A DNA stretch of 10,710 bases from a virus (lineage: Duplodnaviria > Heunggongvirae > Uroviricota > Caudoviricetes), in the IMG/VR virus record IMGVR_UViG_2778261301_000001, positions 1 through 10,710 of that record; one strand, given 5' to 3'. The translations under genes were made by a program, and so were the position numbers. Positions 1-10,710 of this stretch are shown here, in pieces (within the stretch, counting starts at the first letter, position 1; each line of letters begins with the position of its first letter). The notes beneath the pieces were generated by a model. It worked only from the letters and a program-made list of their open reading frames with translations. It did not search any database and was not told where the DNA came from.

Positions 1-77
1 GAAAAACGAGTATTTTTAGTCATCCTGTTTACCTCTTTCTCAGGAAGTTTAGTCTCCAGGATTCCCGGGGCGGTTCA
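1..77 (-). mobile_element. Left terminus (IRL plus first codons of orfA) of an IS3-family element, IS629/IS1203/IS3411-like; the element body lies off-window to the left
   Basis: Positions 1-77 are the exact reverse complement of 10634-10710. On the minus strand the sequence reads TGAACCGCCCCGGGAATCCTGGAGACTAAACTTCCTGAGAAAGAGGTAAACAGG then ATG ACT AAA AAT ACT CGT TTT (MTKNTRF), matching the IS3-family TG terminus and the recalled IS629 OrfA N-terminus. The repeat ends exactly at 77/78. Confidence 0.75.
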
Positions 78-2106
78 CTGCTTTGTCATCGATGTTTCTG
101 GCTTGAGCCAGTTTATAGACAGTGTTTGCCTGACTCTCCATCGCATCCTGCTGGGCAGTAAATGCTTTGATTTGAGTTTGAGCAGTTTCGTTAGTTGCTT
201 TTTGCGCTTCTGCCTGCGCTGCTACCATTTGCGCCTGAGCGAGAACCATTTCAGGATTTGGCTGGCTTTGTGCTGCCATTTGCGCCTGTTGAACAATCTG
301 CTGCTCTTTCTCATTGCGTGGTTTTGCAATACCAGATATCAGCAGTTGGTTTCGGTTGTACTCTTTGAAGTCATCAAGGCCTTCGCCATCGATATTGTCC
401 AGAATAATACCCTGAATTGCCGGGCGCATTGGGTCTGTTGGAAGCATAGAGCTAAGGACATTTGTCAGTACAGAAACCGTTGCATCACGTCGTGCTGTGT
501 AGCTTGGTCCAACATCAACCGTCACATCGTATCGACCGACAGAAAGGTCATTTAACGCAACAACAGCCCCTGTTTGCCTGTCAACAACCTGTGCGCTCAG
601 GACAGCGATATCATCACTTCCATCTTCGTTAACGATGCGCACTTCACGTTCTGAACCGTACACTTCACGCGCCATTGACAGCCATACTTCACCAGCGCGT
701 TTAAGACTTTTCGCCATATTGTCCAGATAGATAAACGAAGCCATATCTGCTCTGTTCATCAAGTTGTTAACCGTTTCCTGAGCAATATTACTTGGCATCT
801 GCTGCATGGCCTGACTGCCGCCTGTAACCTCCTGAATATCTGCACTGGTTTGCTGTAGTAATGCAGCCAATGCCTGATTCATAACCGCAGGCTGTGTATA
901 TCCTGCCGGGGTAGCTCCAGCGATGATGTTGCCAGATTTATCTCTCACTTCGCGCAACGGCAAGAACGCTGGTCGTTTCTTGTTGCGAGCCTCCCAGTGC
1001 TTCTCAAGTCCACGTATTTGCTCCATGCCAACTATAGGGATCTGACCTGGGTCTTGCGCTGCAGTATCAGCCAGCATTGATACCTGAAGGTTGTACAAAC
1101 GCTGTGGATCCATTGCTTTTGCAATATGTCCTTCGACACGCTCAATGTCATCAATGAACCAGCGTTTTCCATAAACCGGGATGAGGGGGATATGCTCACC
1201 AGGAATACGTCGAGGTTTCTCAAGGAAACCATCACCATCCACTACGGATACATACACACGACGGCGCTTCACTGAGCGCCTTGCCACTTCCTGAAATCCA
1301 GCTATTGCCAGTTCATCTTCAATATCTTCGACCTGATCACTGTCGTATGTTGCAATCTCTCCAGTGATTGGATGACGATAACTGATAACGTCAACAGACT
1401 CTTTACGAACTTCGTAATACTTCGCTATGTAAATAACATCTGCATCAAACCAGTCATATTCCCAACTGGTCATAGACGTTACATCCAGAGAAGCAGGAGG
1501 TTTCTTTCCGTATTCAGCCTCATATTTTTCAGGTGACAACGAATACATGCAGAACGCCCACAACGCGTCAGATTTGTCGTACTTCTTAGCGTCAGGGTCA
1601 AACCACACAGAGCGCGACGGGTCGTATATTGGTTCAATAGCAATACGCTGACGATCGTCCATGGGGTCGTATTCATTGACCAGCATCGACGTCAAACGGA
1701 AGCAACCGAAACCACCAGTAGCAGCGTCGTCAAATGCATTATCGCAAGCCTCACCGCCATCAGTTTCTTCGTAGTCAGCACGGAACAGACCATTTAATTT
1801 ATTAGCTAACTCTTCGCTTGCCTCTCTGTCACCAGGACGAAACTTAACTGTGATTCTGTTATTGCGGTATTCTGCAATGATGCGGTTAAGTTCAGTTGCT
1901 ACCTTGTTGATTTCAAACTTAGGATACTTCTCGAACTGCTCATCAAGCTTAGTTCCAGCCGCCGTTGCTCCTTCCCATTGACCTCCGGGGACACGAGCAA
2001 ACCTCGTAGCTTCAATGCACTTTTCGCGCACTTCCTGCTGTGGAGAATAGGCGCGGTCAAACCTGAGCATGATCCGCTCATGTTTTTTCTCTAATGTCTC
2101 TGCCAT
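49..2106 (-). CDS. Phage portal protein (P22/Sf6 gp1/gp3 family), 3' end truncated and fused to IS sequence
   Basis: About 685 aa from the ATG at 2106-2104 (the ORF track's TTG at 2115 is less likely). Long collinear similarity to the recalled P22 portal, e.g. FYEV..., KRRRVY, GEHIP(L/I)(I/V)PV(Y/F)G, NMRADM. The last ~9 codons (..NRPGNPGD, stop at 49-51) lie inside the IS terminus at 1-77. Confidence 0.88.
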   Translation of the reverse strand: MAETLEKKHERIMLRFDRAYSPQQEVREKCIEATRFARVPGGQWEGATAAGTKLDEQFEKYPKFEINKVATELNRIIAEYRNNRITVKFRPGDREASEELANKLNGLFRADYEETDGGEACDNAFDDAATGGFGCFRLTSMLVNEYDPMDDRQRIAIEPIYDPSRSVWFDPDAKKYDKSDALWAFCMYSLSPEKYEAEYGKKPPASLDVTSMTSWEYDWFDADVIYIAKYYEVRKESVDVISYRHPITGEIATYDSDQVEDIEDELAIAGFQEVARRSVKRRRVYVSVVDGDGFLEKPRRIPGEHIPLIPVYGKRWFIDDIERVEGHIAKAMDPQRLYNLQVSMLADTAAQDPGQIPIVGMEQIRGLEKHWEARNKKRPAFLPLREVRDKSGNIIAGATPAGYTQPAVMNQALAALLQQTSADIQEVTGGSQAMQQMPSNIAQETVNNLMNRADMASFIYLDNMAKSLKRAGEVWLSMAREVYGSEREVRIVNEDGSDDIAVLSAQVVDRQTGAVVALNDLSVGRYDVTVDVGPSYTARRDATVSVLTNVLSSMLPTDPMRPAIQGIILDNIDGEGLDDFKEYNRNQLLISGIAKPRNEKEQQIVQQAQMAAQSQPNPEMVLAQAQMVAAQAEAQKATNETAQTQIKAFTAQQDAMESQANTVYKLAQARNIDDKAVNRPGNPGD

Positions 2107-2108
2107 GT

Positions 2109-3521
2109 TTACCAACCGGAGGATGAGGGAACGTATATTTCAGTTTCTTCGCGGACCAATGCCGGGCAATGCATACACATCATCAGCGCATCAGCCAGGT
2201 TAGGAGATGGAATACCGAGCTTCTGCTTCATTTCGACCTTAGTCATTAGCTCCAGCTTCCCGTTTTTATTGAATTTGCGCTGAATCTGCGTCAGTTCTGC
2301 AAACAGCTTCTCCAGCATCTTCTCGCCTATCGCTTCTTTGTCGAAACTCAGCATGTCGTCGGGGTCTGCATACTCACCGTGAACAACCGCCCGATATGTC
2401 AGATACAGCCTGTCAGCCAGCGCGTAATAGAATTGCGCTCGCTTATTGCGAAATACATCGCCAATAGTGCGAACGTTGTCGCCCTGTACTACTTCATCAG
2501 CCCATGCTCCGGCCTGATACGGCGCATCTTCATCGAATGGCGATTCGCTGCCCTTGAACATCGTGGCGGTGATTTTCTTGCCGGAGAACGCTTCCGTTGT
2601 CTGTCTGCGTAGCCCGGCACCAACACCATCACCATCCCACAGGTAATGGTCAGCGCCGTCTTCAATCGCCAGCGAAGTAGCCCAGTCAGCACCTTCATTG
2701 ATGTCCATCAGCAGGCCTTCGGCAATGCGCTTAACTACCGAACCGTGGCGCGATGCATAACCTTTAGCATCTGGCCCTGTATCTGATGGGTCATGCGCAG
2801 AGACAACAGCGCCTTTCGCTTTCCATCCGAGTTTCTTGTGCGCATCGGTTGCAGCTTCAAGCCATTCACGTTTGATGATTGCCATATCACTTGCGCTCAC
2901 TGGCTCACCAAGCCAGATGTGACGATACAGTGTCGGATTTCTGCGTTTACACTCTTCCATCTCCAGACGGAGAACTTCAGGAAAGTGCGGGTTGTCTGTA
3001 TAGTTCACCGTCAGCAGACAAATATCATCGGGAGGATTTACAACGAATCGCTGATAGGTATCGTCGAGAATGTTCTTAGGGTTGAAGCTCACCCATATTT
3101 CGGAAAACGGCTTGCGGATGGTTGGTATCAGGATATCCCATGATTCCTTCGTTACCGCTTCCGCTTCTTCCACCCAGCAGATATCAATGCCTTCGAGCGA
3201 TTTAATCTTCGTCGGGTTGTTTTTTATGCCGTAGAACATGAATTCAGCATTCGTTCCGAGATGACGAATCATTGAACGCTGAATTTCAAACTCAGCCGAA
3301 TACCCTTCCCGCTCGATGGTGTCTTCAAGCAACCGGATTACCGAATCGCTGATGCTGTTTTGCAGTTCACGAGCGCAGAGAATACGCACAGGCTGCCGAC
3401 GCGCCGCTTCAACAAGAAGCCTCGCAATTGCCCATGACTTACCGCTACCTCGACCGCCTTTGGCGACTTTGTAGCGATGCGCCTCAATAAACGGTTCAAA
3501 GATAGGATTAATCGAGGTCAT
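2109..3521 (-). CDS. terL: Terminase large subunit (Sf6 gp2-like; ATPase plus nuclease)
   Basis: 470-aa ORF with an N-terminal Walker A motif (VAKGGRGSGKSWA) and a Walker B-like ICWVEEAE. It sits directly upstream of the portal with a 2-nt spacer, and its length and sequence match the recalled Sf6 TerL. Confidence 0.93.
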   Translation of the reverse strand: MTSINPIFEPFIEAHRYKVAKGGRGSGKSWAIARLLVEAARRQPVRILCARELQNSISDSVIRLLEDTIEREGYSAEFEIQRSMIRHLGTNAEFMFYGIKNNPTKIKSLEGIDICWVEEAEAVTKESWDILIPTIRKPFSEIWVSFNPKNILDDTYQRFVVNPPDDICLLTVNYTDNPHFPEVLRLEMEECKRRNPTLYRHIWLGEPVSASDMAIIKREWLEAATDAHKKLGWKAKGAVVSAHDPSDTGPDAKGYASRHGSVVKRIAEGLLMDINEGADWATSLAIEDGADHYLWDGDGVGAGLRRQTTEAFSGKKITATMFKGSESPFDEDAPYQAGAWADEVVQGDNVRTIGDVFRNKRAQFYYALADRLYLTYRAVVHGEYADPDDMLSFDKEAIGEKMLEKLFAELTQIQRKFNKNGKLELMTKVEMKQKLGIPSPNLADALMMCMHCPALVREETEIYVPSSSGW

Positions 3522-3943
3522 TTTCCGAATAGAGTGCTCATCGGTGATGTTTCAATCTGGATTGCGCCGCCGTCCTTACCGACAAGCTCGTTAGTTACCT
3601 TGTCGCCATACTTACGGGGATTCATTCTGGCCAGCGCCCATTTGCGGGTATCAACGCGAAGTCTTGCCTTTGCCACCTCGGCGGCATCAGGGATTACGTC
3701 GTCAGCAATTTCGAATATCTCTTCGAAAATAGAGTCGGCCCGAGTCTCTGTTGCCTTCGCGTACTGGTCACGAAACTCCTGATGTTCAGCCAGCCAGCGA
3801 AAAACTGATGTTTTGCTCGGCATTCCTGGGCGTTCGCAAACTTTGCGCAGACTCTCGCCGGAGGAAAGCAATGCGCAAATGTCATTAGCCACCTCCGGCA
3901 TATAATCAGAGGGGCGACCACCTTTCTTTTTCTCAGTCGCCAT
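3518..3943 (-). CDS. terS: Terminase small subunit (Sf6 gp1-like)
   Basis: 141-aa ORF whose TGA overlaps the terL ATG (ATGA). The N-terminus MATEKKKGGRPSDYMPEVANDICALL... matches the recalled Sf6 small terminase, and a GAAGGGA Shine-Dalgarno lies upstream. Confidence 0.85.
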   Translation of the reverse strand: MATEKKKGGRPSDYMPEVANDICALLSSGESLRKVCERPGMPSKTSVFRWLAEHQEFRDQYAKATETRADSIFEEIFEIADDVIPDAAEVAKARLRVDTRKWALARMNPRKYGDKVTNELVGKDGGAIQIETSPMSTLFGK

Positions 3944-4022
3944 ATTGATTATTTCCCTTCTGCTTGCTTATCCCATTCATCGCGGAATTTGGATGGGTTG
4001 TCGAAACCTTGAGTTGCCATGT

Positions 4023-4265
4023 TTACGCTCCGGTAGTGAACAGGTCTAACGCTTCCTTCGATTTACGCACCGCTTCGAATGTGCGGATCGTGATATCCGA
4101 ATTAGCGCCGCCTGACTGGAAGTGAATTTTAAATAGCTCAAGCTTCAGCTCGTCAGTGCCAATGAATTGAAATGCTTCTTCTGCGGCTGCGTTCTGGTTC
4201 ATGACCAGTTTGTAAATCTCTAACTGGAATTTCTGTTCTTCAGTCATGGGAATAATCTCTGCCAT
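4023..4265 (-). CDS. Hypothetical small protein (80 aa) upstream of terS
   Basis: Clean ORF with a GGAG Shine-Dalgarno 7 nt upstream of the ATG at 4265-4263, same strand and operon context as the terminase genes. No family recognised. Confidence 0.55.
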   Translation of the reverse strand: MAEIIPMTEEQKFQLEIYKLVMNQNAAAEEAFQFIGTDELKLELFKIHFQSGGANSDITIRTFEAVRKSKEALDLFTTGA

Positions 4266-4281
4266 TGTTGGCTCCGTTTAT

Positions 4282-4312
4282 CCGTTAAAAGGGATATCAG
4301 TTAAGTTATCCC
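4282..4312 (-). terminator. Candidate intrinsic terminator (weak) between the moron and the 80-aa gene
   Basis: Inverted repeat GGGATA..TATCCC at 4291-4312 (6-bp stem, 10-nt loop), followed on the minus strand by TTTTAACGG (plus 4282-4290). Confidence 0.3.
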
Positions 4313-4574
4313 GTGCAGGGTATAAGCCATTGTCGAGACCACTCATTGAATGGTCTCTGCAATAACCGATGTCTTTCCATCAGTCCGCCACCACAAAGAA
4401 TCTTTTTTGCCATAAGGCAGGAGGTTCATCTTTCAGTGGCTGCCAGTTTATTTCCCCACTTTCTGGCTTGGGTTGTTTCGCTGTACTGCCGTTAATTGGT
4501 GAGTCCGGGGATTATTTCAGTTCGTTACCAGGCATTTCTTTTAGCTCTTTCAAATGACAACGATTGAGGCTAAA

Positions 4575-4997
4575 TCACTCCCCGTGCGACCTATAGTTGT
4601 AATATTTTTGGTGCAATTTGGTTTCAAGCTCTCTATCGGCAGGAATCTTTGCAATTAGATTTAGCTTCCCACCACTCATGCGAGATATCTCTGAAATTCG
4701 TTTATTAACCCTGCGACTAAACCCTATTTTTGTTAGCCCACTATCTTCAGCATGCAGAACGTACACATATGATTTTTGCGAAGCACTGGGTGCGACTTTG
4801 TTGTAATTAATCATGTCAAACATAAAGCCTTGCTTTAGCAAAGTTTCAAAAAAGATAGAATTAACACACCCATTCCTTCTCAGCTCTGCACTTAGCTTGT
4901 CAATTTCCTCTATGATGTCGCCAGACCCCTTTCCACTTATAAGAAAATCTTGGTACATGCGACCAATTCTTGAGGTAATTTCAACAAAGTTATTCAT
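4575..4997 (-). CDS. Moron-encoded protein with a C-terminal T5orf172 / MUG113 (GIY-YIG-like) domain; ends at an in-frame TGA where the family's conserved Trp is expected
   Basis: 140 aa from the first ATG (4997-4995), with AAAGG about 10 nt upstream. The C-terminal half reads SYVYVLHAEDSGLTKIGFSRRVNKRISEISRM...ELETKLHQKYYNYRSHGE-stop-F, matching the T5orf172 pattern (YVYVL, KIG, R..EIS, E..LH, GEWF). The region is locally AT-rich compared with the flanking phage genes. The ORF track's 221-aa version begins at a TTG and is probably over-extended. Confidence 0.65.
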   Translation of the reverse strand: MNNFVEITSRIGRMYQDFLISGKGSGDIIEEIDKLSAELRRNGCVNSIFFETLLKQGFMFDMINYNKVAPSASQKSYVYVLHAEDSGLTKIGFSRRVNKRISEISRMSGGKLNLIAKIPADRELETKLHQKYYNYRSHGE

Positions 4998-5135
4998 AGC
5001 GTCTTTACCTTTTAGAAAGTGAGCCTGTCTCACAGAAAAGCCGCCCGAGAGAGGTCGCCACCTATAACGGCATTTCTCAGGCTCGCTTACTGAAAGGCTC
5101 TCGTTAATATGCGCGTGAGATGCGCTGTGAAATTC

Positions 5136-5165
5136 AGATATAAAAAGCCCCGCGAATGCGAGGCT
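5136..5165 (-). terminator. Candidate intrinsic terminator downstream of the lysis cassette
   Basis: Plus 5146-5165 AGCCCCGCGAATGCGAGGCT forms an 8-bp stem with one mismatch and a GAAT loop. On the minus strand it is followed by TTTTTATATCTG. Confidence 0.45.
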
Positions 5166-5339
5166 AAATCCTGGTATTTGTAATGAACTGGCTCTTATCT
5201 CAACGCAGCCCCTTACTGCGCGCCAGATGCTCAATATCAAGCATCAGCAATGAGATGTTTAATCTGGATTTACTCCAGAAGTGATCACCACCCTGTCTAC
5301 AGAGCCAGATGTGAAGGATGATGAGTAAAATTATCGCTA

Positions 5340-5777
5340 TCATCGAAGGCATTGCGTCCTAATGTATTCCTGCAGGTAGTTAACCTGCGCGGTTATCTTG
5401 TCGATTCCACTTCGGAGACGGTAATAATTGAGTTCAGCATCTGCTGTAAGTCCTGGGCTTTCTCCATCGCCCATGCCGCTGGCTCCGGTCGTTGACTTTG
5501 CACAGGTGGCGGCGACTTGCAGGCGCTTACGCCCAGCAGAAACATCAGCACGGAGACTTTCAATAGTCGCGTTAGCATCAGCAAGCTCCTTTGTGTATCT
5601 GGCGTCAAGTTCTGCTACATCACGTTGACGCTTCTGCATGTCAGCGATTGTGGATGTGGCCTTATCGCGCTGCTCTTTGTAGGTCATGGCGTTATCACGG
5701 TAATGATTAACAGCCCATGACAGGCTGACGATGATGCAGATAACCAGAGCGGAGATAATCGCGGTTACTCTACTCAT
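5340..5777 (-). CDS. Rz: Rz i-spanin (inner-membrane spanin subunit)
   Basis: 145 aa. The N-terminus [29 protein letters not shown] is near-identical to recalled lambda Rz (N-terminal TM segment, coiled-coil periplasmic domain). Its ATG overlaps the R stop (ATGA). Confidence 0.88.
5393..5578 (-). CDS. Rz1: Rz1 o-spanin (outer-membrane lipoprotein), embedded in the +1 frame of Rz
   Basis: Embedded ORF reading [26 protein letters not shown]...PEPAAW. It has a signal peptide with a lipobox (VSAC) and a proline-rich mature region typical of Rz1. The exact start is uncertain (Met at 5578 or a downstream Met). Confidence 0.72.
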
Positions 5778-6250
5778 ACCTCAATCTCTCTGACCGTTCC
5801 GCCTGCTTCTTTGAATTTTGCAATCAGGCTGTCAGCCTTATGCTCGAACTGACCGTAACCAGCCCCCGGCAGTGAAGCCCAGATATTGCTGCAACGGTCG
5901 ATTGCCTGACGGATATCACCGCGATCAATCATCGGCAAAGCGCCACGCTCTTTAATCTGTTGCAGTGCCACAGCGTCCTGGCTTTTCGGAGAGAAGTCTT
6001 TCAGTCCAAGCTGCTTGCGGTAGGCATCCCACCAACGGGAAAGAAGCTGATAGCGCCCGGCTGCTGTTGATTTGAGTTTTGGGTTTAGCGTGACAAGTTT
6101 GCGAGGGTGATCGGAGTAATCGGTAAATAGCTCTCCGCCTACAATGACGTCATAACCATGATTTCTGGTTTTCTGACGTCCGTTATCAGTTCCCTCTGAC
6201 CACGCCAGCATATCGAGGAACGCCTTACGTTGATTATTGATTTCCACCAT
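5774..6250 (-). CDS. R: Endolysin, lambda R-type lytic transglycosylase
   Basis: 158 aa, [51 protein letters not shown]..., essentially identical to recalled lambda R. The start overlaps the S stop as in lambda. Confidence 0.95.
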
Positions 6251-6557
6251 CTTCTACTCCGGCTTTTTTAGCAGCGAAGCGTTTGATAAGCGAACCAATC
6301 GAGTCAGTACCGATGTAGCCGATGAACACGCTCGTTATATAAGCGAGATTGCTACTTAGTCCGGCGAAGTCGAGAAGGTCACGAATGAACCAGGCGATAA
6401 TGGCGCACATCGTTGCGTCGATTACTGTTTTTGTAAACGCACCGCCATTATATCTGCCGCGAAGGTACGCCATTGCAAACGCAAGGATTGCCCCGATGCC
6501 TTGTTCCTTTGCCGCGAGAATGGCGGCTAACAGGTCATGTTTTTCTGGCATCTTCAT
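6234..6557 (-). CDS. S: Holin/antiholin, lambda S (S107/S105 dual start)
   Basis: 107 aa, [39 protein letters not shown]..., near-identical to recalled lambda S. It has the Met1-Lys2-Met3 dual-start motif (ATGAAGATG at 6557-6549). Confidence 0.95.
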
Positions 6558-6682
6558 GTCTTACCCCCAATAAGGGGATTTGCTCTATTTAATTAGGAAT
6601 AAGGTCGATTACTGATAGAACAAATCCAGGCTACTGTGTTTAGTAATCAGATTTGTTCGTGACCGATATGCACGGGCAAAAC

Positions 6683-6712
6683 GGCAGGAGGTTGTTAGCG
6701 CAACCTCATGCC
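6683..6712 (-). promoter_or_regulatory. Conserved GC-rich stem-loop in the S leader (lambda-like)
   Basis: GGCAGGAGGTTG / CAACCTCATGCC (12-bp stem, one mismatch, 6-nt loop), followed on the minus strand by GTTTTGCCCGTG. The same structure sits at the same place upstream of S in recalled lambda sequence. Function not assigned here. Confidence 0.5.
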
Positions 6713-6847
6713 ACCCGCTTTCACGAAGCCAGCCATTACGCTGGTTTTCTTTTATGCAAAGCACACCGCACCGTAGCCACAGCGGATAAGGTGATTATTT
6801 TTGTCTGTCTGGTATTTGGGTTGATGTGCTTTCAGAAAGGTCGTGAT

Positions 6848-6886
6848 TAAAACGCAAAAAGCCCCGAGCTATTAACTCAGGGCTTT
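6848..6886 (-). terminator. Promoter-proximal intrinsic terminator of the late operon (tR'-equivalent; target of Q antitermination)
   Basis: On the minus strand, GCCCUGAG-UUAAUAG-CUCGGGGC (8-bp GC-rich stem, extendable to 11 bp) is followed immediately by UUUUUGCGUUUU. It lies about 25-65 nt downstream of the predicted pR' start. Confidence 0.6.
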
Positions 6887-6905
6887 ATTTAACGAGTGCA
6901 TTTAT

Positions 6906-6948
6906 CCATCGTTTGGTCAAATTTACCCAACTTTATTCAAAAAGTCAA
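6906..6948 (-). promoter_or_regulatory. Late promoter pR' with Q-utilisation (qut) region
   Basis: The minus strand reads TTGACT (plus 6943-6948), a 17-bp spacer, TAAATT (plus 6920-6925), then TTGACCAAACGATGG. This is nearly identical to recalled lambda pR' (TTGACTTATTGAATAAAATTGGGTAAATTTGACTCAACGATGG), including the pause-inducing AACGAT element. Predicted +1 is near 6912. Confidence 0.75.
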
Positions 6949-6990
6949 TATCATGCCGTTAATATGTTGCCATCCGTGGCAATCATGCTG

Positions 6991-7614
6991 CTAACGTGTG
7001 ACCGCATTCAAAATGTTGTCTGCGATTGACTCTTCTTTGTGGCATTGCACCACCAGAGCGTCATACAGCGGCTTAACAGTGCGTGACCAGGTGGGTTGAG
7101 TAAGGTTTGGGATTAGCATCGTTACAGCGCGATATGCGGCGCTTGCTGGCATCCTTGAATAACCGACGCCTTTGCATCTTCCGCATTCTTTCTCAACAAC
7201 TCTCCCCCACTGCTCTGTTTTTGCTATATCAACCGCACGGCCTGTACCGTGGCAATCTCTGCATCTTGCGCCCGGCGTCGCGGCACTACGGCAATAATCC
7301 GCATAAGCGAATGTTGCGAGCACTTGCAGTACCTTAGCCTTAGTATTTCCTTCGAGCTTTGCCACACCACGGTATTTCCCCGATACCTTGTGTGCAAATT
7401 GCATCAGATAGTTGATAGCCTTTTGTTTGTCGTTCTGGCTGAGTTCGTGCTTACCACAGAATGCAGCCATTCCGAATCCGGCTTGTGATTGCGCCATCCC
7501 CATAGCAGCCATCACATCAGTACCGGAAAGAGAGTCAGAAGCCGTAGCCCGTGGTGAGTCGCTCATCATCGGGCTTTTTGGCGAATGAAATTTAGCTACG
7601 CTTTCGAGTCTCAT
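6991..7614 (-). CDS. Q: Late-gene antiterminator Q (lambda-type)
   Basis: 207 aa, MRLESVAKFHSPKSPMMSDSPRATASDSLSG..., essentially identical to recalled lambda Q, with a zinc-binding CRDCHGTG...CGRCKG region. It sits immediately upstream of pR'. Confidence 0.95.
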   Translation of the reverse strand: MRLESVAKFHSPKSPMMSDSPRATASDSLSGTDVMAAMGMAQSQAGFGMAAFCGKHELSQNDKQKAINYLMQFAHKVSGKYRGVAKLEGNTKAKVLQVLATFAYADYCRSAATPGARCRDCHGTGRAVDIAKTEQWGRVVEKECGRCKGVGYSRMPASAAYRAVTMLIPNLTQPTWSRTVKPLYDALVVQCHKEESIADNILNAVTR

Positions 7615-7799
7615 GGCCTTCCCCTTTTGCCCTGTTTGACCATCAGGACGCCGTTAACTATTACGTGACGCTCGCCTTTGCTGTCTCGGTTGTACTTGAG
7701 CACTGTTCCTCTTGCGCAGGAAAGCATCCTCGCCACTTCGGTCTGATTGCCTCGTGTCTGGATAAGAAGCTCTGGTATCGTTTGAATTGTGGCGTTCAT
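7611..7799 (-). CDS. ninH: NinH-like small DNA-binding protein
   Basis: 62 aa, ..TIPELLIQTRGNQTEVARMLSCARGTVLKY.. resembles recalled lambda NinH (..TIPDMLVETYGNQTEVARRLKCSRGTVRKY..). ATGA overlaps with both the Q start and the rusA stop. Confidence 0.78.
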   Translation of the reverse strand: MNATIQTIPELLIQTRGNQTEVARMLSCARGTVLKYNRDSKGERHVIVNGVLMVKQGKRGRP

Positions 7800-8158
7800 A
7801 CGTTCTCCAGTTCGGTGATTTTTATTCCAAGCCTTCCGCCTGGTACTTTCACACCACGAATTACGCGAATGTCATCGAATTGCTCGTCGTCTTCCGCAAA
7901 TCCGGCGTGGATAAGTGAGTCGAGTAAACCTTTCAGGATGTTATCGAGGTCGCGGCGGCGGGAGTCTGGAACGTCTGCGATGACTTTGATGCGGAGTCGT
8001 GATTTGGTGAAAATGTCTAACTTGAGTTGGCGGATGATTTGCTGAACGTCTTTTCGGTATTTCTGACCTTTATCGCTGATGTAGTATTGGCTTCCCCGTC
8101 TTCGCCAGTAGGTATTCACCGACGGCGGGTAAGGAAGCACAAACTGATATTCGTTCAT
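7796..8158 (-). CDS. rusA: RusA-family Holliday junction resolvase
   Basis: 120 aa with LPYPPSVNTYWRRRG, DVPDSRRRDLDNILKGLLDSL and GGRLGIKITE, matching the conserved blocks of E. coli RusA (LPWPPSNNRYY..., PDRRRRDLDNLQK). Confidence 0.85.
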   Translation of the reverse strand: MNEYQFVLPYPPSVNTYWRRRGSQYYISDKGQKYRKDVQQIIRQLKLDIFTKSRLRIKVIADVPDSRRRDLDNILKGLLDSLIHAGFAEDDEQFDDIRVIRGVKVPGGRLGIKITELENV

Positions 8159-8445
8159 GGCTTAATCTTCCCCTCCTTCAGCAGTATCGCCTGCGTCCTG
8201 ATCACGCCTTCCAGGTGGTAAAGTCTGGCGTCTTTGTTGTCGAGGTTATGGGTGCGTCGGTCGATTTCATCGTGACACGCGCTACAAGCCCATGCGCCGA
8301 TCAGGTCGTCAGGCTTCATTCCCGTTCCGCAAATTCCAGCCATCCGGTAATGTGCCAGAACTGTAGTTTCAGGATTACCATTGCATACGCCGTAAATACG
8401 TACCTGGCATTCTCTGCCGCGCGCTTCTTTGCGTAGGTTAACCAT
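8155..8445 (-). CDS. YbcO-like protein (DUF1364, putative nuclease), nin region
   Basis: 96 aa, LRKEARGRECQVRIYGVCNGNPETTVLAHYR...ACSACHDEIDRRTH, closely resembling recalled DLP12 YbcO. Cys/His-rich motifs present. Confidence 0.75.
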   Translation of the reverse strand: MVNLRKEARGRECQVRIYGVCNGNPETTVLAHYRMAGICGTGMKPDDLIGAWACSACHDEIDRRTHNLDNKDARLYHLEGVIRTQAILLKEGKIKP

Positions 8446-9167
8446 TAAGCAGCCTCTCCTGTTACTTTCAGCATTCCGTTATCGAGCAGCTTTCTGGTCA
8501 GCCACTGTTGACCACGCCCGGTGATTTTTGTGGTGAACGATATCTGTATTCCGTGATTTGTGTTGACCGCTGTTTCTTTCACTGTGAAATAGCCGCGATC
8601 CATATATTCCTGCATTGGCACATTGCGCCGGGAACCTGAAGCAATAAGGATTTTGTGATCGCGCATCCACGCAAACAGTTTGTTTGGACCAATTCCAACA
8701 ACCTTTGCAAAGTTTCCAATCAAAATTCCGCTGGCCTCGCCAACGCGATCGGCAAACTCAACTTTAGGTGCGGCAATTGCGAGCTGGTTTTCCAGTTGCA
8801 TTTTCTGCTCAGCAAGATCAGCAGCAAGGCGCAACGCTTCTGGTAACGTTTTGGGGATATTAACCGCAGCTTCTTCAAGCTCTCGCCAACGGTCAACAAG
8901 ACGAGCGGTGAATTCCGGCGACAATTGGGCGACGACAATAATGCTGTCTCGCTTACCTTGTTCGCCTTCGAAGACATAAGCCTCGACACTACGGCGCAGC
9001 CCTAAGTTATTGATTTTTTCGAAAACCTGCAATGCAGGAAGTTGAATAACTCCAGATTTAGCCAGGCGCTCTATTGATATTTTTACGTTATCTGGACGAC
9101 TTCCCACCAACTCAGCGATTTCAATGCTTGTCATTTTGATGGCATTGCCATTTATTAACTCATTCAT
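8445..9167 (-). CDS. Rha-family phage regulatory protein with C-terminal KilA-C/ANT domain (putative antirepressor, Roi-like)
   Basis: 240 aa. The N-terminus (MTSIEIAELVGSRPDNVKISIERL) is Rha-like and the C-terminus (GNFAKVVGIGPNKLFAWMRDHKIL...VPMQEYMDRGYF) is KilAC-like. The domain assignment is from recalled Pfam patterns, not a search. Confidence 0.7.
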   Translation of the reverse strand: MNELINGNAIKMTSIEIAELVGSRPDNVKISIERLAKSGVIQLPALQVFEKINNLGLRRSVEAYVFEGEQGKRDSIIVVAQLSPEFTARLVDRWRELEEAAVNIPKTLPEALRLAADLAEQKMQLENQLAIAAPKVEFADRVGEASGILIGNFAKVVGIGPNKLFAWMRDHKILIASGSRRNVPMQEYMDRGYFTVKETAVNTNHGIQISFTTKITGRGQQWLTRKLLDNGMLKVTGEAA

Positions 9168-9336
9168 CGTCTTCTTCCTCGTACATTGAGCTATTCGGAT
9201 CGCTCATCAGTTCTGCGCAGCAATCGGAGCACACGTGAACTTCCAGCACATGCAGCTTCTGACCGCAGTTAGCGCACGTTAAAGCTCGCTCGACGCTTTC
9301 TTTCTGGTATTGAATGGATTGGGATGGGCTAAGCAT
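9160..9336 (-). CDS. ninF: NinF-like small zinc-ribbon protein
   Basis: 58-aa ORF below the ORF track's size cutoff: [58 protein letters not shown], with CxxC...C..CC. Its ATG overlaps the upstream stop (TAATG) and its TGA overlaps the Rha ATG in ATGAATGA. Resembles recalled lambda NinF. Confidence 0.7.
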   Translation of the reverse strand: MLSPSQSIQYQKESVERALTCANCGQKLHVLEVHVCSDCCAELMSDPNSSMYEEEDDE

Positions 9337-9701
9337 TATTGGATTCTCTGCATCATGAGAAAGACATTCATGGCGGCGCGGAGGGGATTTTCATGTATAG
9401 CTCGCTTAGATTTACAGTAGGCCACACCGCGTGCACCCCACTCGTCTTCATCGAGATTGATAATGCTAATCCTGTATTTTTCAATAATCGGCCATGCGTC
9501 TGCTGGGTTTGCGCATGGGTTAAAGGATCCGCGCTCAACTTCTACTTCAACTGCGTCTCCGTTTACAATGTCTCCCTCAAATGAGACAAACACCATATCG
9601 CCATTCTCACCTTCTTTGTAATCCGGTGATCCGTTATGAATGGCTTCGAATACCGCCACGTTAATTTCAAAATCACTTAACTGTGAATAATCCATTGTCA
9701 T
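9336..9701 (-). CDS. nin-region protein, NinX-like (DUF2591-type); family identity uncertain
   Basis: 121 aa from the ATG at 9701 ([22 protein letters not shown]...), which overlaps the NinE TGA as ATGA. The ORF track's 133-aa version starts upstream inside ninE. Gene is well supported by operon coupling; the NinX name is a tentative recollection. Confidence 0.6.
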
Positions 9702-9874
9702 TTCCTCGCACGATGTCTTAGCCACCGGATATCCCACAGGTGAGCCGTGTAGTTGAAGGTTTTTACATCAGATTCTTTTGGGATTGGCTTGCGTTTATTT
9801 CTGGAGCGTTTCGTTGGAAGGTATTTGCAGTTTTCGCAGATGATGTCGGTGAAACTTCGTCGCTGTCGCCTCAT
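9698..9874 (-). CDS. ninE: NinE-like protein
   Basis: 58-aa ORF not in the ORF track: [58 protein letters not shown], closely resembling recalled lambda NinE. ATGA overlap with the ninB stop. Confidence 0.75.
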
Positions 9875-10281
9875 TCGTACCTCCTGTCGGTAAATCTGAC
9901 ACCCTGACCAATAGCCCAGGCTGTTGTGTACTCAATCAGACTTGCCATACGCTTCACACTCATCTGCGCGCTGCTTTCGCGAATGTTGACGTATTCGCCT
10001 TCAAGCCCGGGCAAAACATCAGCTTCCTGCTTTGTTGCCACTGCATGACCGCTGATCAACAAAACCTTCCATTGTTCTGGTTTTAACCATTTATCGCGCC
10101 ACTGAACTTGCCTAGCGATATCCGCCAGCATCGCGTGAAATTTTGCGTTCTGGTCAAGGTTGCGCTTGTAGTCAGTAATGCGGATGGTGACTGGCTTGTC
10201 TTTATCGAGTGGTGTTGCGAGGATGGCGTTGATTGCGGCTTGCTGTTGTTGCTTAGTTCGGAGGAAGATTGTTTGCTTCAT
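9871..10281 (-). CDS. ninB: NinB-family protein (Orf-like recombination mediator)
   Basis: 136 aa from the internal ATG at 10281 ([20 protein letters not shown]...), with AAGGAG 6 nt upstream. Resembles recalled lambda NinB (LDQN(R/A)K, QV.W...WL..E.WK). The ORF track's upstream extension is unlikely. Confidence 0.8.
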
Positions 10282-10283
10282 CG

Positions 10284-10472
10284 TTACTCCTTCACTTTGA
10301 CTCCGGCGGTGCGAACTGCGGCCATCCAAGCCCTGTATCTCTTGTTTATTTCAACTCGTTTATACACAATCACGCCCAAAATATTCTTGCTTCTCATTTG
10401 TCGAATGAAGCAAGCGGAGACACCAAGTTCATCAGCGCACCAATCTTCAAATCTCTCTAAGTTATCGTCCAT
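10284..10472 (-). CDS. Small hypothetical protein, possible HTH regulator (Ren/NinA position)
   Basis: 62 aa from the first ATG (10472): MDDNLERFEDWCADELGVSACFIRQMRSKNILGV... Its stop lies within the ninB ribosome-binding site and the upstream stop is 1 nt from its ATG. Family not recognised. Confidence 0.45.
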   Translation of the reverse strand: MDDNLERFEDWCADELGVSACFIRQMRSKNILGVIVYKRVEINKRYRAWMAAVRTAGVKVKE

Positions 10473-10473
10473 A

Positions 10474-10633
10474 TCAATCACCGTTAATCGTTTCACTCAC
10501 GAATCTGACAAAACCAGCCATGTTTATTTGCATGAGTTTTTTCAACACCTTGTCTCGTCGGCTACGTTTTGGTTTTGGCCTGTGGTTGAATCTTTCACAA
10601 ACTGGAAGGCTTGATGATTTCCAGTACCTATTA
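10474..10633 (-). pseudogene. 3' remnant (51 codons) of a phage gene interrupted by the right-hand IS insertion
   Basis: The minus-strand frame is open from the IS junction (10633) to a TGA at 10474-10476: ..NRYWKSSSLPVCERFNHRPKPKRSRRDKVLKKLMQINMAGFVRFVSETINGD*. There is no upstream start within phage DNA, and the stop is 1 nt from the next gene's ATG. The parent gene is unknown (replication-region position). Confidence 0.4.
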
Positions 10634-10710
10634 TGAACCGCCCCGGGAATCCTGGAGACTAAACTTCCTGAGAAAGAGGTAAACAGGATGACTAAAAATA
10701 CTCGTTTTTC
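10634..10710 (+). mobile_element. Left terminus (IRL plus first codons of orfA) of a second IS629-like IS3-family copy, inverted relative to the copy at 1-77; body off-window to the right
   Basis: TGAACCGCCCCGGGAATCCTGGAGACTAAACTTCCTGAGAAAGAGGTAAACAGG then ATGACTAAAAATACTCGTTTTTC (orfA start at 10688). Exact reverse complement of 1-77. Confidence 0.75.

Follow-up and report, generated by a model that had tools for sequence, protein, structure and literature searches.

Gene content of the prophage block

The window, the whole 10,710-nt stretch of DNA analysed here, consists of a block of prophage genes with an end of the insertion sequence IS629 on either side. The following features were identified:

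1..77, minus strand: IS629 left end (IRL and the first 23 nt of orfA) at a contig end; 75-76 of 77 positions match annotated IS629 left ends, and the length equals the inferred assembler k
49..2106, minus strand: portal gene cut by IS629 (Pfam P22_portal)
78..10633, minus strand: single-copy P22/Sf6-like prophage DNA (10,556 bp), spanning the DUF7301 gene through the portal gene and colinear with intact relatives throughout
2109..3521, minus strand: terminase large subunit (Terminase_3 / PBSX family)
3518..3943, minus strand: terminase small subunit (Sf6_terminase)
4023..4265, minus strand: DUF2560 protein
4575..5033, minus strand: T5orf172/MUG113-domain protein in a slot of variable content that separates lysis from packaging genes
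5200..6557, minus strand: lysis cassette (holin, 6234-6557; GH24 endolysin, 5774-6250; Rz-like lysis protein, 5340-5777; 50-aa ORF, 5200-5352)
6991..7614, minus strand: late antiterminator Q (Pfam Antiterm)
7611..10281, minus strand: nin region (NinH, RusA, YbcO, KilAC/ANT antirepressor at 8445-9167, NinF, NinX, NinE, NinB)
10284..10472, minus strand: 62-aa hypothetical protein
10474..10633, minus strand: 3' part of the DUF7301 gene, which IS629 interrupts after nt 56 of 216
10634..10710, plus strand: IS629 left end (IRL and the first 23 nt of orfA) at a contig end; TG terminus at 10634, orfA ATG at 10688

The Pfam family of each gene, together with colinearity, identified a P22/Sf6-like (Lederbergvirus-type) late region, in which nin genes, Q, holin/endolysin/Rz, an Sf6-type small terminase, a large terminase and a P22-type portal lie in colinear order. 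The block was 96-98% identical at the nucleotide level to, and colinear with, annotated P22-like prophages in which P22 coat, gp4 and gp10 genes follow downstream. The initial annotation had assigned the segment to prophage late regulation, lysis, terminase and portal functions, and this was borne out. In relatives, the slot at 4575..5033 holds Rha, KilA-N or Gp49 genes. Scanning the window against Rfam and for tRNAs returned nothing, and so no tRNA or stx cargo follows Q. The exact large terminase sequence was present only on contig NOMP01000078.1 and on one Logan contig.

The arms are two inward-facing IS629 left ends

Sequence comparison within the window showed that positions 1-77 and 10634-10710 are 100% reverse-complementary. 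No other long inverted repeat occurs in the window. By chance, about 2.5e-39 such pairs would be expected, and we rejected chance as the source (expectation about 1e-39). Each arm reads TGAACCGCCCCGGG...AGGATGACTAAAAATACTCGTTTTTC. The repeat breaks off precisely at the terminus of the IS, with C at base 78 and T as the complement of base 10633.

IS629 belongs to the IS3 family, and the full element of ~1310 bp carries orfA and orfB joined by a programmed -1 frameshift. It is near-identical to IS1203/IS3411. The arms matched the left ends of two IS629 copies in phage BP-4795, annotated as such by the depositors themselves, at 75/77 and 76/77 positions. As a further reference we used a 1310-bp IS from strain E2865, which is flanked by a 3-bp GCA duplication, annotated with a programmed frameshift and 99.8% identical to the IS629 annotated in BP-4795. 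Against this element the arms matched the left end at 75/77 positions but the right end, which starts TGAACCGCCCCGGGTTTCCTGGAGAG..., at only 42/77. Both arms begin their terminal inverted repeat with 5'-TG and, shortly after IRL, carry the start of orfA (MTKNTRF...; ATG at IS nt 55), its first 23 nt being identical to the reference. The initial annotation had read the arms from the letters alone as perfect reverse complements that end at an IS3-family TG terminus, include the beginning of orfA and represent two IS629-like left ends in opposite orientation, facing inward; comparison with annotated copies upheld each of these points. Two inward-facing left ends in a linear genome mean two separate IS copies in inverted orientation, each of which is represented in the contig by 77 nt only. 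Many E. coli carry multiple IS629-like left ends, at up to 50 places per genome.

Both junctions fall at points uninterrupted in intact relatives

The portal gene product retains 677 native residues of 708, followed by 8 IS-encoded residues and a stop inside IS629, and thereby loses 31 C-terminal residues. Across this junction (marked here by a slash), intact relatives read ...GCCTCCATCA/CTGCTTTG; across the DUF7301 junction they read ...GGAGCAAGGCG/TAATAGG, likewise uninterrupted. Continuity of the relatives at both points fits two simple insertions in opposite orientation. On the inner side of both junctions, zero phage bases were lost compared to the intact relatives. The inner flanks are CTG at 78-80 and TTA at 10631-10633, bases that occur as a single copy in the relatives; CTG and TAA are candidate 3-bp target duplications. 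Recombination within IS629 would likewise leave the inner junctions unchanged.

We searched for the same junctions elsewhere. Queries of 377 bp against 5,426 complete E. coli genomes yielded no junction-spanning record. One match of 100% coverage, in H41, consisted of two separate pieces 563 bp apart and was rejected as an instance of the same junction. Scans with 31-mers from both junctions gave 0 matches in GTDB species-representative genomes and JGI metagenomes (all four scans). Neither the portal-IS fusion protein nor the truncated DUF7301 product was on record in an exact-protein look-up, and a literature search with the accession and run numbers found no mention.

Arm length is set by the assembler

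The window is the reverse complement of the entire contig NOMP01000078.1 (10,710 bp), part of the draft E. coli assembly GCA_002518645.1. A second contig, SRR3977094_287 from the Logan assembly (k=31), is an exact substring of the window and ends 30 nt (k-1) into IS629, at a site where the NCBI contig runs on to 77 nt into the same element. The SRR3977094 Logan assembly and GCA_002518645.1 appear to derive from the same isolate. The customary largest k in SPAdes is 77. SPAdes is commonly run with k=77 for 150-bp reads (PMC6404606), and its contig ends retain overlapping sequence (PMC5481147). From the stopping pattern, we infer that the NCBI assembly was made with SPAdes at k=77.

Because the window is an entire contig, the 77-nt length and perfect identity of the arms are set by the assembler k-mer and not by biology. 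The stops at 30 nt with k=31 and at 77 nt, the largest SPAdes k, identify both window ends as contig breaks at a collapsed multi-copy repeat. The initial annotation had raised the prospect that the 77-nt repeats are an artefact. This held for their length, a contig-end artefact, but not for the adjacency of phage DNA and IS629, which a second assembler reproduced at the left (portal) junction. Exact k-length repeats, inverted or direct, at both ends of a whole-contig window are an assembler signature and not measured biological lengths. The chief value of this case is the caution it gives on reading contig-end repeats.

Origin of the arrangement

Two IS629 insertions very likely flank the block, with the contig ending k=77 nt into a collapsed IS629 node on each side. 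The window is one complete contig, which would come from short reads of an E. coli isolate assembled with a de Bruijn graph. In the genome, the 10,556-bp prophage stretch would adjoin an IS629 left end on each side. The multi-copy 1310-bp IS629 copies would have been merged into one repeat node, at which the contig stopped 77 nt in at each end; the arms are perfect reverse complements because both contig ends enter the same node via the same IS end. The simplest history would be two independent, oppositely oriented insertions: one 31 codons short of the end of the portal gene and the other 56 nt into the DUF7301 gene, upstream of ninB. Presumably both IS629 copies are complete and the rest of the prophage lies beyond them. 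The outer portal-side junction would then have ...GCCTCCATCACTG beside the IS629 right end, with the final 96 nt of the portal gene coming next and the scaffold and coat genes after that. The outer DUF7301-side junction would have ...GGAGCAAGGCGTAA beside the IS629 right end, with replication genes before it.

It is possible, though we consider it doubtful, that at least one of the IS629 junctions instead arose by recombination between copies (inversion or deletion) or by an adjacent deletion, so that unrelated chromosome, not the remaining prophage, would lie beyond it and the block would be an isolated fragment. IS629 occurs in multiple copies and is known to drive structural change in EHEC-type genomes (PMC7430833), and neither junction was common to any other genome searched. 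Yet both inner junctions lie at points that are uninterrupted in intact relatives, and the block is perfectly colinear with them, as two simple insertions predict. A pure assembly artefact, in which IS629 k-mers were wrongly joined into a chimeric or hairpin-like contig and phage DNA adjoins no IS629 at all, is highly improbable. The arms do sit at the contig ends and have the exact k-mer length, but contigs with k bases of a repeat are the normal result for a unique segment beside that repeat (PMC5481147). At both ends the junction falls at the canonical TG terminus of the IS, as true transposition predicts, and a second assembler with a different k reproduced the portal-IS629 junction base for base. 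With the left junction recovered exactly in this way, a hairpin or chimera was rejected as the main explanation.

Inversion, mobility and prophage function

It is very unlikely that the block is a functional unit bounded by IS629 that actively inverts or relocates, whether as an invertible cassette or as a composite transposon with phage packaging genes. Two inverted repeats of 1.3 kb with 10.5 kb between them do offer RecA a valid substrate for inversion, and BP-4795 is a documented case of two IS629 copies in one phage genome, though there in direct orientation. Against an active unit, the same junctions were absent from all other complete E. coli genomes, species-representative genomes and metagenomes searched, and the exact terminase sequence was restricted to this isolate. 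Moreover, IS3-family copy-out/paste-in transposition normally joins a left and a right end, and two right ends, as the outer ends would be here, are an unusual substrate. A composite transposon comprises two complete IS copies around a segment that has moved as one piece, the whole structure being enclosed by a target duplication; the number of second occurrences of either junction was 0 across the 5,426 complete E. coli genomes, GTDB representatives and JGI metagenomes.

The initial annotation had described the segment as a unit that could be inverted, deleted or mobilised. Inversion stands in principle, as RecA-dependent recombination between the IS629 copies could invert the block. Deletion does not, since homologous recombination between inverted copies yields inversion, and mobilisation is not supported, as neither junction recurred in the complete E. 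coli genomes, species representatives and metagenomes searched. That an IS629-enclosed late and packaging module of a P22-like prophage serves as an invertible or transposable cassette is less probable still. If it did, inversion would break the coupling of terminase and portal to the head genes or to Q-dependent transcription, or, in the transposable alternative, packaging genes would move between prophages.

The claim that the prophage is defective is plausible. The portal lacks 31 C-terminal residues and the DUF7301 gene is split, which suggests a prophage crippled by IS629. The insertions probably disable it, but an stx2 phage whose late operon carries an IS629 was still produced (PMC7430833).

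Comparison with known systems

De Bruijn-graph contig breaks with SPAdes k-length overlaps have the same form as those observed here, where both ends stop k nt into a multi-copy element. The contig does not differ from other collapsed-repeat breaks and is a textbook example of a unique segment flanked by inverted repeats.

Insertion of IS629 into prophages is well documented. A phage block that ends at IS629 on both sides is real but ordinary, and already known. Biologically, the case is a further example of two strain-specific IS629 insertions in one prophage, an ordinary decay route in IS-rich E. coli. IS629 has also been found in stx2 and other prophage genes (PMC7430833). As in the lambdoid and P22-like prophages of EHEC/STEC, the insertions here lie inside prophage genes; in E2865, a closely related P22-like prophage carries IS629 in its coat gene with the 3-bp GCA duplication. 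Compared to the known prophage IS629s, the copies here are inverted, with left ends inward and 77 nt of each visible, and their insertion sites are shared with no other genome searched. In BP-4795, two IS629 copies in one phage bracket phage DNA, as they do here. There, however, the copies are in direct orientation, ~1.5 kb apart, in an accessory region near nleA, whereas here they are inverted, 10.5 kb apart, and surround late and packaging genes.

Gene content between the IS629 arms

All genes between the two arms (78-10633) lay on the minus strand, in the following order of transcription.

Genes of the segment, window coordinates
10474-10633, minus strand: DUF7301 gene, 3' part (first in transcription order)
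10284-10472, minus strand: 62-aa ORF
within 9160-10281, minus strand: NinB, NinE, NinX and NinF
8445-9167, minus strand: KilAC/ANT antirepressor
within 7611-8445, minus strand: YbcO, RusA and NinH
6991-7614, minus strand: antiterminator Q
5200-6557, minus strand: holin, GH24 endolysin, Rz-like protein and 50-aa ORF
4575-5033, minus strand: T5orf172/MUG113 protein
4023-4265, minus strand: DUF2560 protein
3518-3943, minus strand: small terminase, Sf6-type
2109-3521, minus strand: large terminase
to 2106, minus strand: portal, P22-type (last in transcription order)

Colinear P22-like prophages in complete E. coli genomes were 96-98% identical across as much as 87% of the window, and in these relatives the portal is followed by genes for scaffold, P22-type coat, gp4 and gp10. 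Scans of the window detected neither tRNA genes nor Rfam matches, and no toxin cargo was observed downstream of Q. Between Q and the holin, the 433-bp gap (6558-6990) holds no tRNA gene, Rfam match or cargo gene; gaps in the relatives reach ~1 kb. The variable slot between lysis and packaging genes carries the T5orf172/MUG113 protein (152 aa) here and Rha, KilA-N or Gp49 in relatives. Within the nin region, ninF and ybcO flank the KilAC/ANT antirepressor; in other relatives this place is taken by NinG or an 89-aa ORF.

In a collection of ~15 billion proteins, the exact large terminase (WP_097477380.1) was restricted to this contig and a single Logan contig of SRR3977094. Most neighbouring proteins were found on tens to more than 1000 contigs each; NinX was limited to 3 contigs, and no entry matched NinB exactly. 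The prophage is a mosaic, and its terminase allele is rare.

The arms are inward-facing IS629 left ends

The arms at 1-77 and 10634-10710 were reverse complements without a mismatch, confirming the initial annotation. The window had no other long inverted repeat (runners-up were 24-25 nt with 72-79% complementarity), and the chance expectation for perfect 77-nt inverted pairs in 10.7 kb was ~2.5e-39. The repeat boundary coincided exactly with the IS terminus and excluded phage DNA: base 78 is C, whereas the complement of base 10633 is T.

Read starting at 10634, the arm sequence is TGAACCGCCCCGGGAATCCTGGAGACTAAACTTCCTGAGAAAGAGGTAAACAGGATGACTAAAAATACTCGTTTTTC. We compared it with a complete 1310-bp element in E. 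coli E2865 (4768-6077 of our extracted sequence), which is flanked by a 3-bp GCA duplication. The arm matched the left end of this element at 75 of 77 positions and its right end at only 42 of 77. The E2865 element was 99.8% identical to a copy in phage BP-4795 that its depositors labelled IS629 OrfA/OrfB, and the arm matched the two left ends in BP-4795 at 75/77 and 76/77. Because of these matches, both arms are IS629 left ends that face inward, as had been proposed. The orfA ATG is at IS nt 55, and each arm includes 23 nt of orfA.

Arm length reflects the assembler

The large-terminase protein had an exact match on a single 10,710-bp NCBI contig, NOMP01000078.1 (assembly GCA_002518645.1), whose reverse complement is the window along its full length. 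This contig therefore begins and ends with the two arms; any feature at the extremities of the window is a contig-end feature, since the window spans the entire public contig. The NCBI contig stops exactly 77 nt inside the IS at both ends. Logan contig SRR3977094_287, assembled independently at k=31, matches window positions 48-4306 exactly along its whole length and stops exactly 30 nt (k-1) inside the same IS. Both assemblies appear to derive from the same isolate, because the exact terminase was found nowhere else.

The largest k used by SPAdes with 150-bp reads is usually 77 (PMC6404606), SPAdes contigs that meet in the graph keep overlapping sequence at their ends, and contig breaks at IS elements are a standard limitation of short-read assemblies (PMC5481147). 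A unique segment with k repeat bases per end is the expected output when all copies of a segment end adjoin the repeat. Many E. coli carry multiple IS629-like left ends, at up to 50 matching places in one genome. Given the whole-contig window, the k-dependent stops and these multi-copy ends, the length and perfect identity of the arms mark the entry of the assembler into a collapsed repeat node and not the size of a biological repeat. The assembly artefact that the initial annotation named as a possible refutation applies to the 77-nt detail; the IS adjacency itself stands, the left junction having been recovered by the second assembler (k=31).

The k=31 assembly also breaks within the segment, at 4306, 6092 and 10421, where Logan contigs L004 and L007 end; the second base of L007 is its sole difference from the window. 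These breaks suggest that the isolate carries another, related prophage with common stretches of at least 31 nt.

Insertion points

In uninterrupted relatives, the left junction falls between GCCTCCATCA and CTGCTTTG and the right junction between GGAGCAAGGCG and TAATAGG. On the inner side of both junctions the phage bases were complete, with none lost; CTG and TAA (which reads TTA on the window strand) are the 3-bp candidate targets. After the left insertion, 677 of the 708 residues of the portal remain, followed by 8 IS-encoded residues and a stop at position 49. At the right junction, IS629 interrupts the 216-nt DUF7301 gene after its nt 56. Within 49-80, the three final IS bases, TCA, are identical to the phage trinucleotide that precedes the insertion point in intact relatives; because of this coincidence, BLAST homology to intact portals begins at 75 and not 78. 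The portal region at 75-377 was 100% identical to E2865.

Neither junction was present in 5,426 complete E. coli genomes, species-representative genomes or JGI metagenomes, and a lookup of junction-specific products for other contigs with the junctions gave no match. The arrangement is most simply explained by two independent IS629 insertions into a single prophage, in opposite orientations. Less probably, one of the junctions is a recombination breakpoint.

Predicted consequences for mobility and phage fitness

IS629 belongs to the IS3 family. Its transposase is produced through a programmed frameshift, which is annotated for the E2865 copy, and it generates 3-bp duplications. Two insertions in this orientation would place inverted 1.3-kb copies 10.5 kb apart, where they would serve as a substrate for homologous recombination, and the outcome would be inversion of the block. 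Deletion of the segment by recombination between the copies, also put forward in the initial annotation, is mechanistically wrong for inverted copies, because it requires repeats in direct orientation or an exchange with further IS629 copies. Composite-transposon movement would need two right ends as outer ends, and nothing here favours it.

With a truncated portal, a late operon broken before scaffold and coat, and ~2.6 kb that would be added to a headful-packaged genome, the prophage is plausibly crippled. An stx2 phage with IS629 inside its late operon is still plaque-forming (PMC7430833).

Comparison with known systems

IS629 insertions are well documented in EHEC/STEC prophages (PMC7430833). 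We found IS629-like elements in 174 deposited phage records, some with two or three copies. The finding is already known and ordinary in kind, and the initial interpretation is partly supported. BP-4795 also carries two IS629 copies, but in direct orientation. The closely related P22-like prophage of E2865 (NZ_AP018808.1) has its complete 1310-bp IS629 in the coat gene, with the GCA target duplication, and is an independent instance of IS629 insertion into the same phage type.
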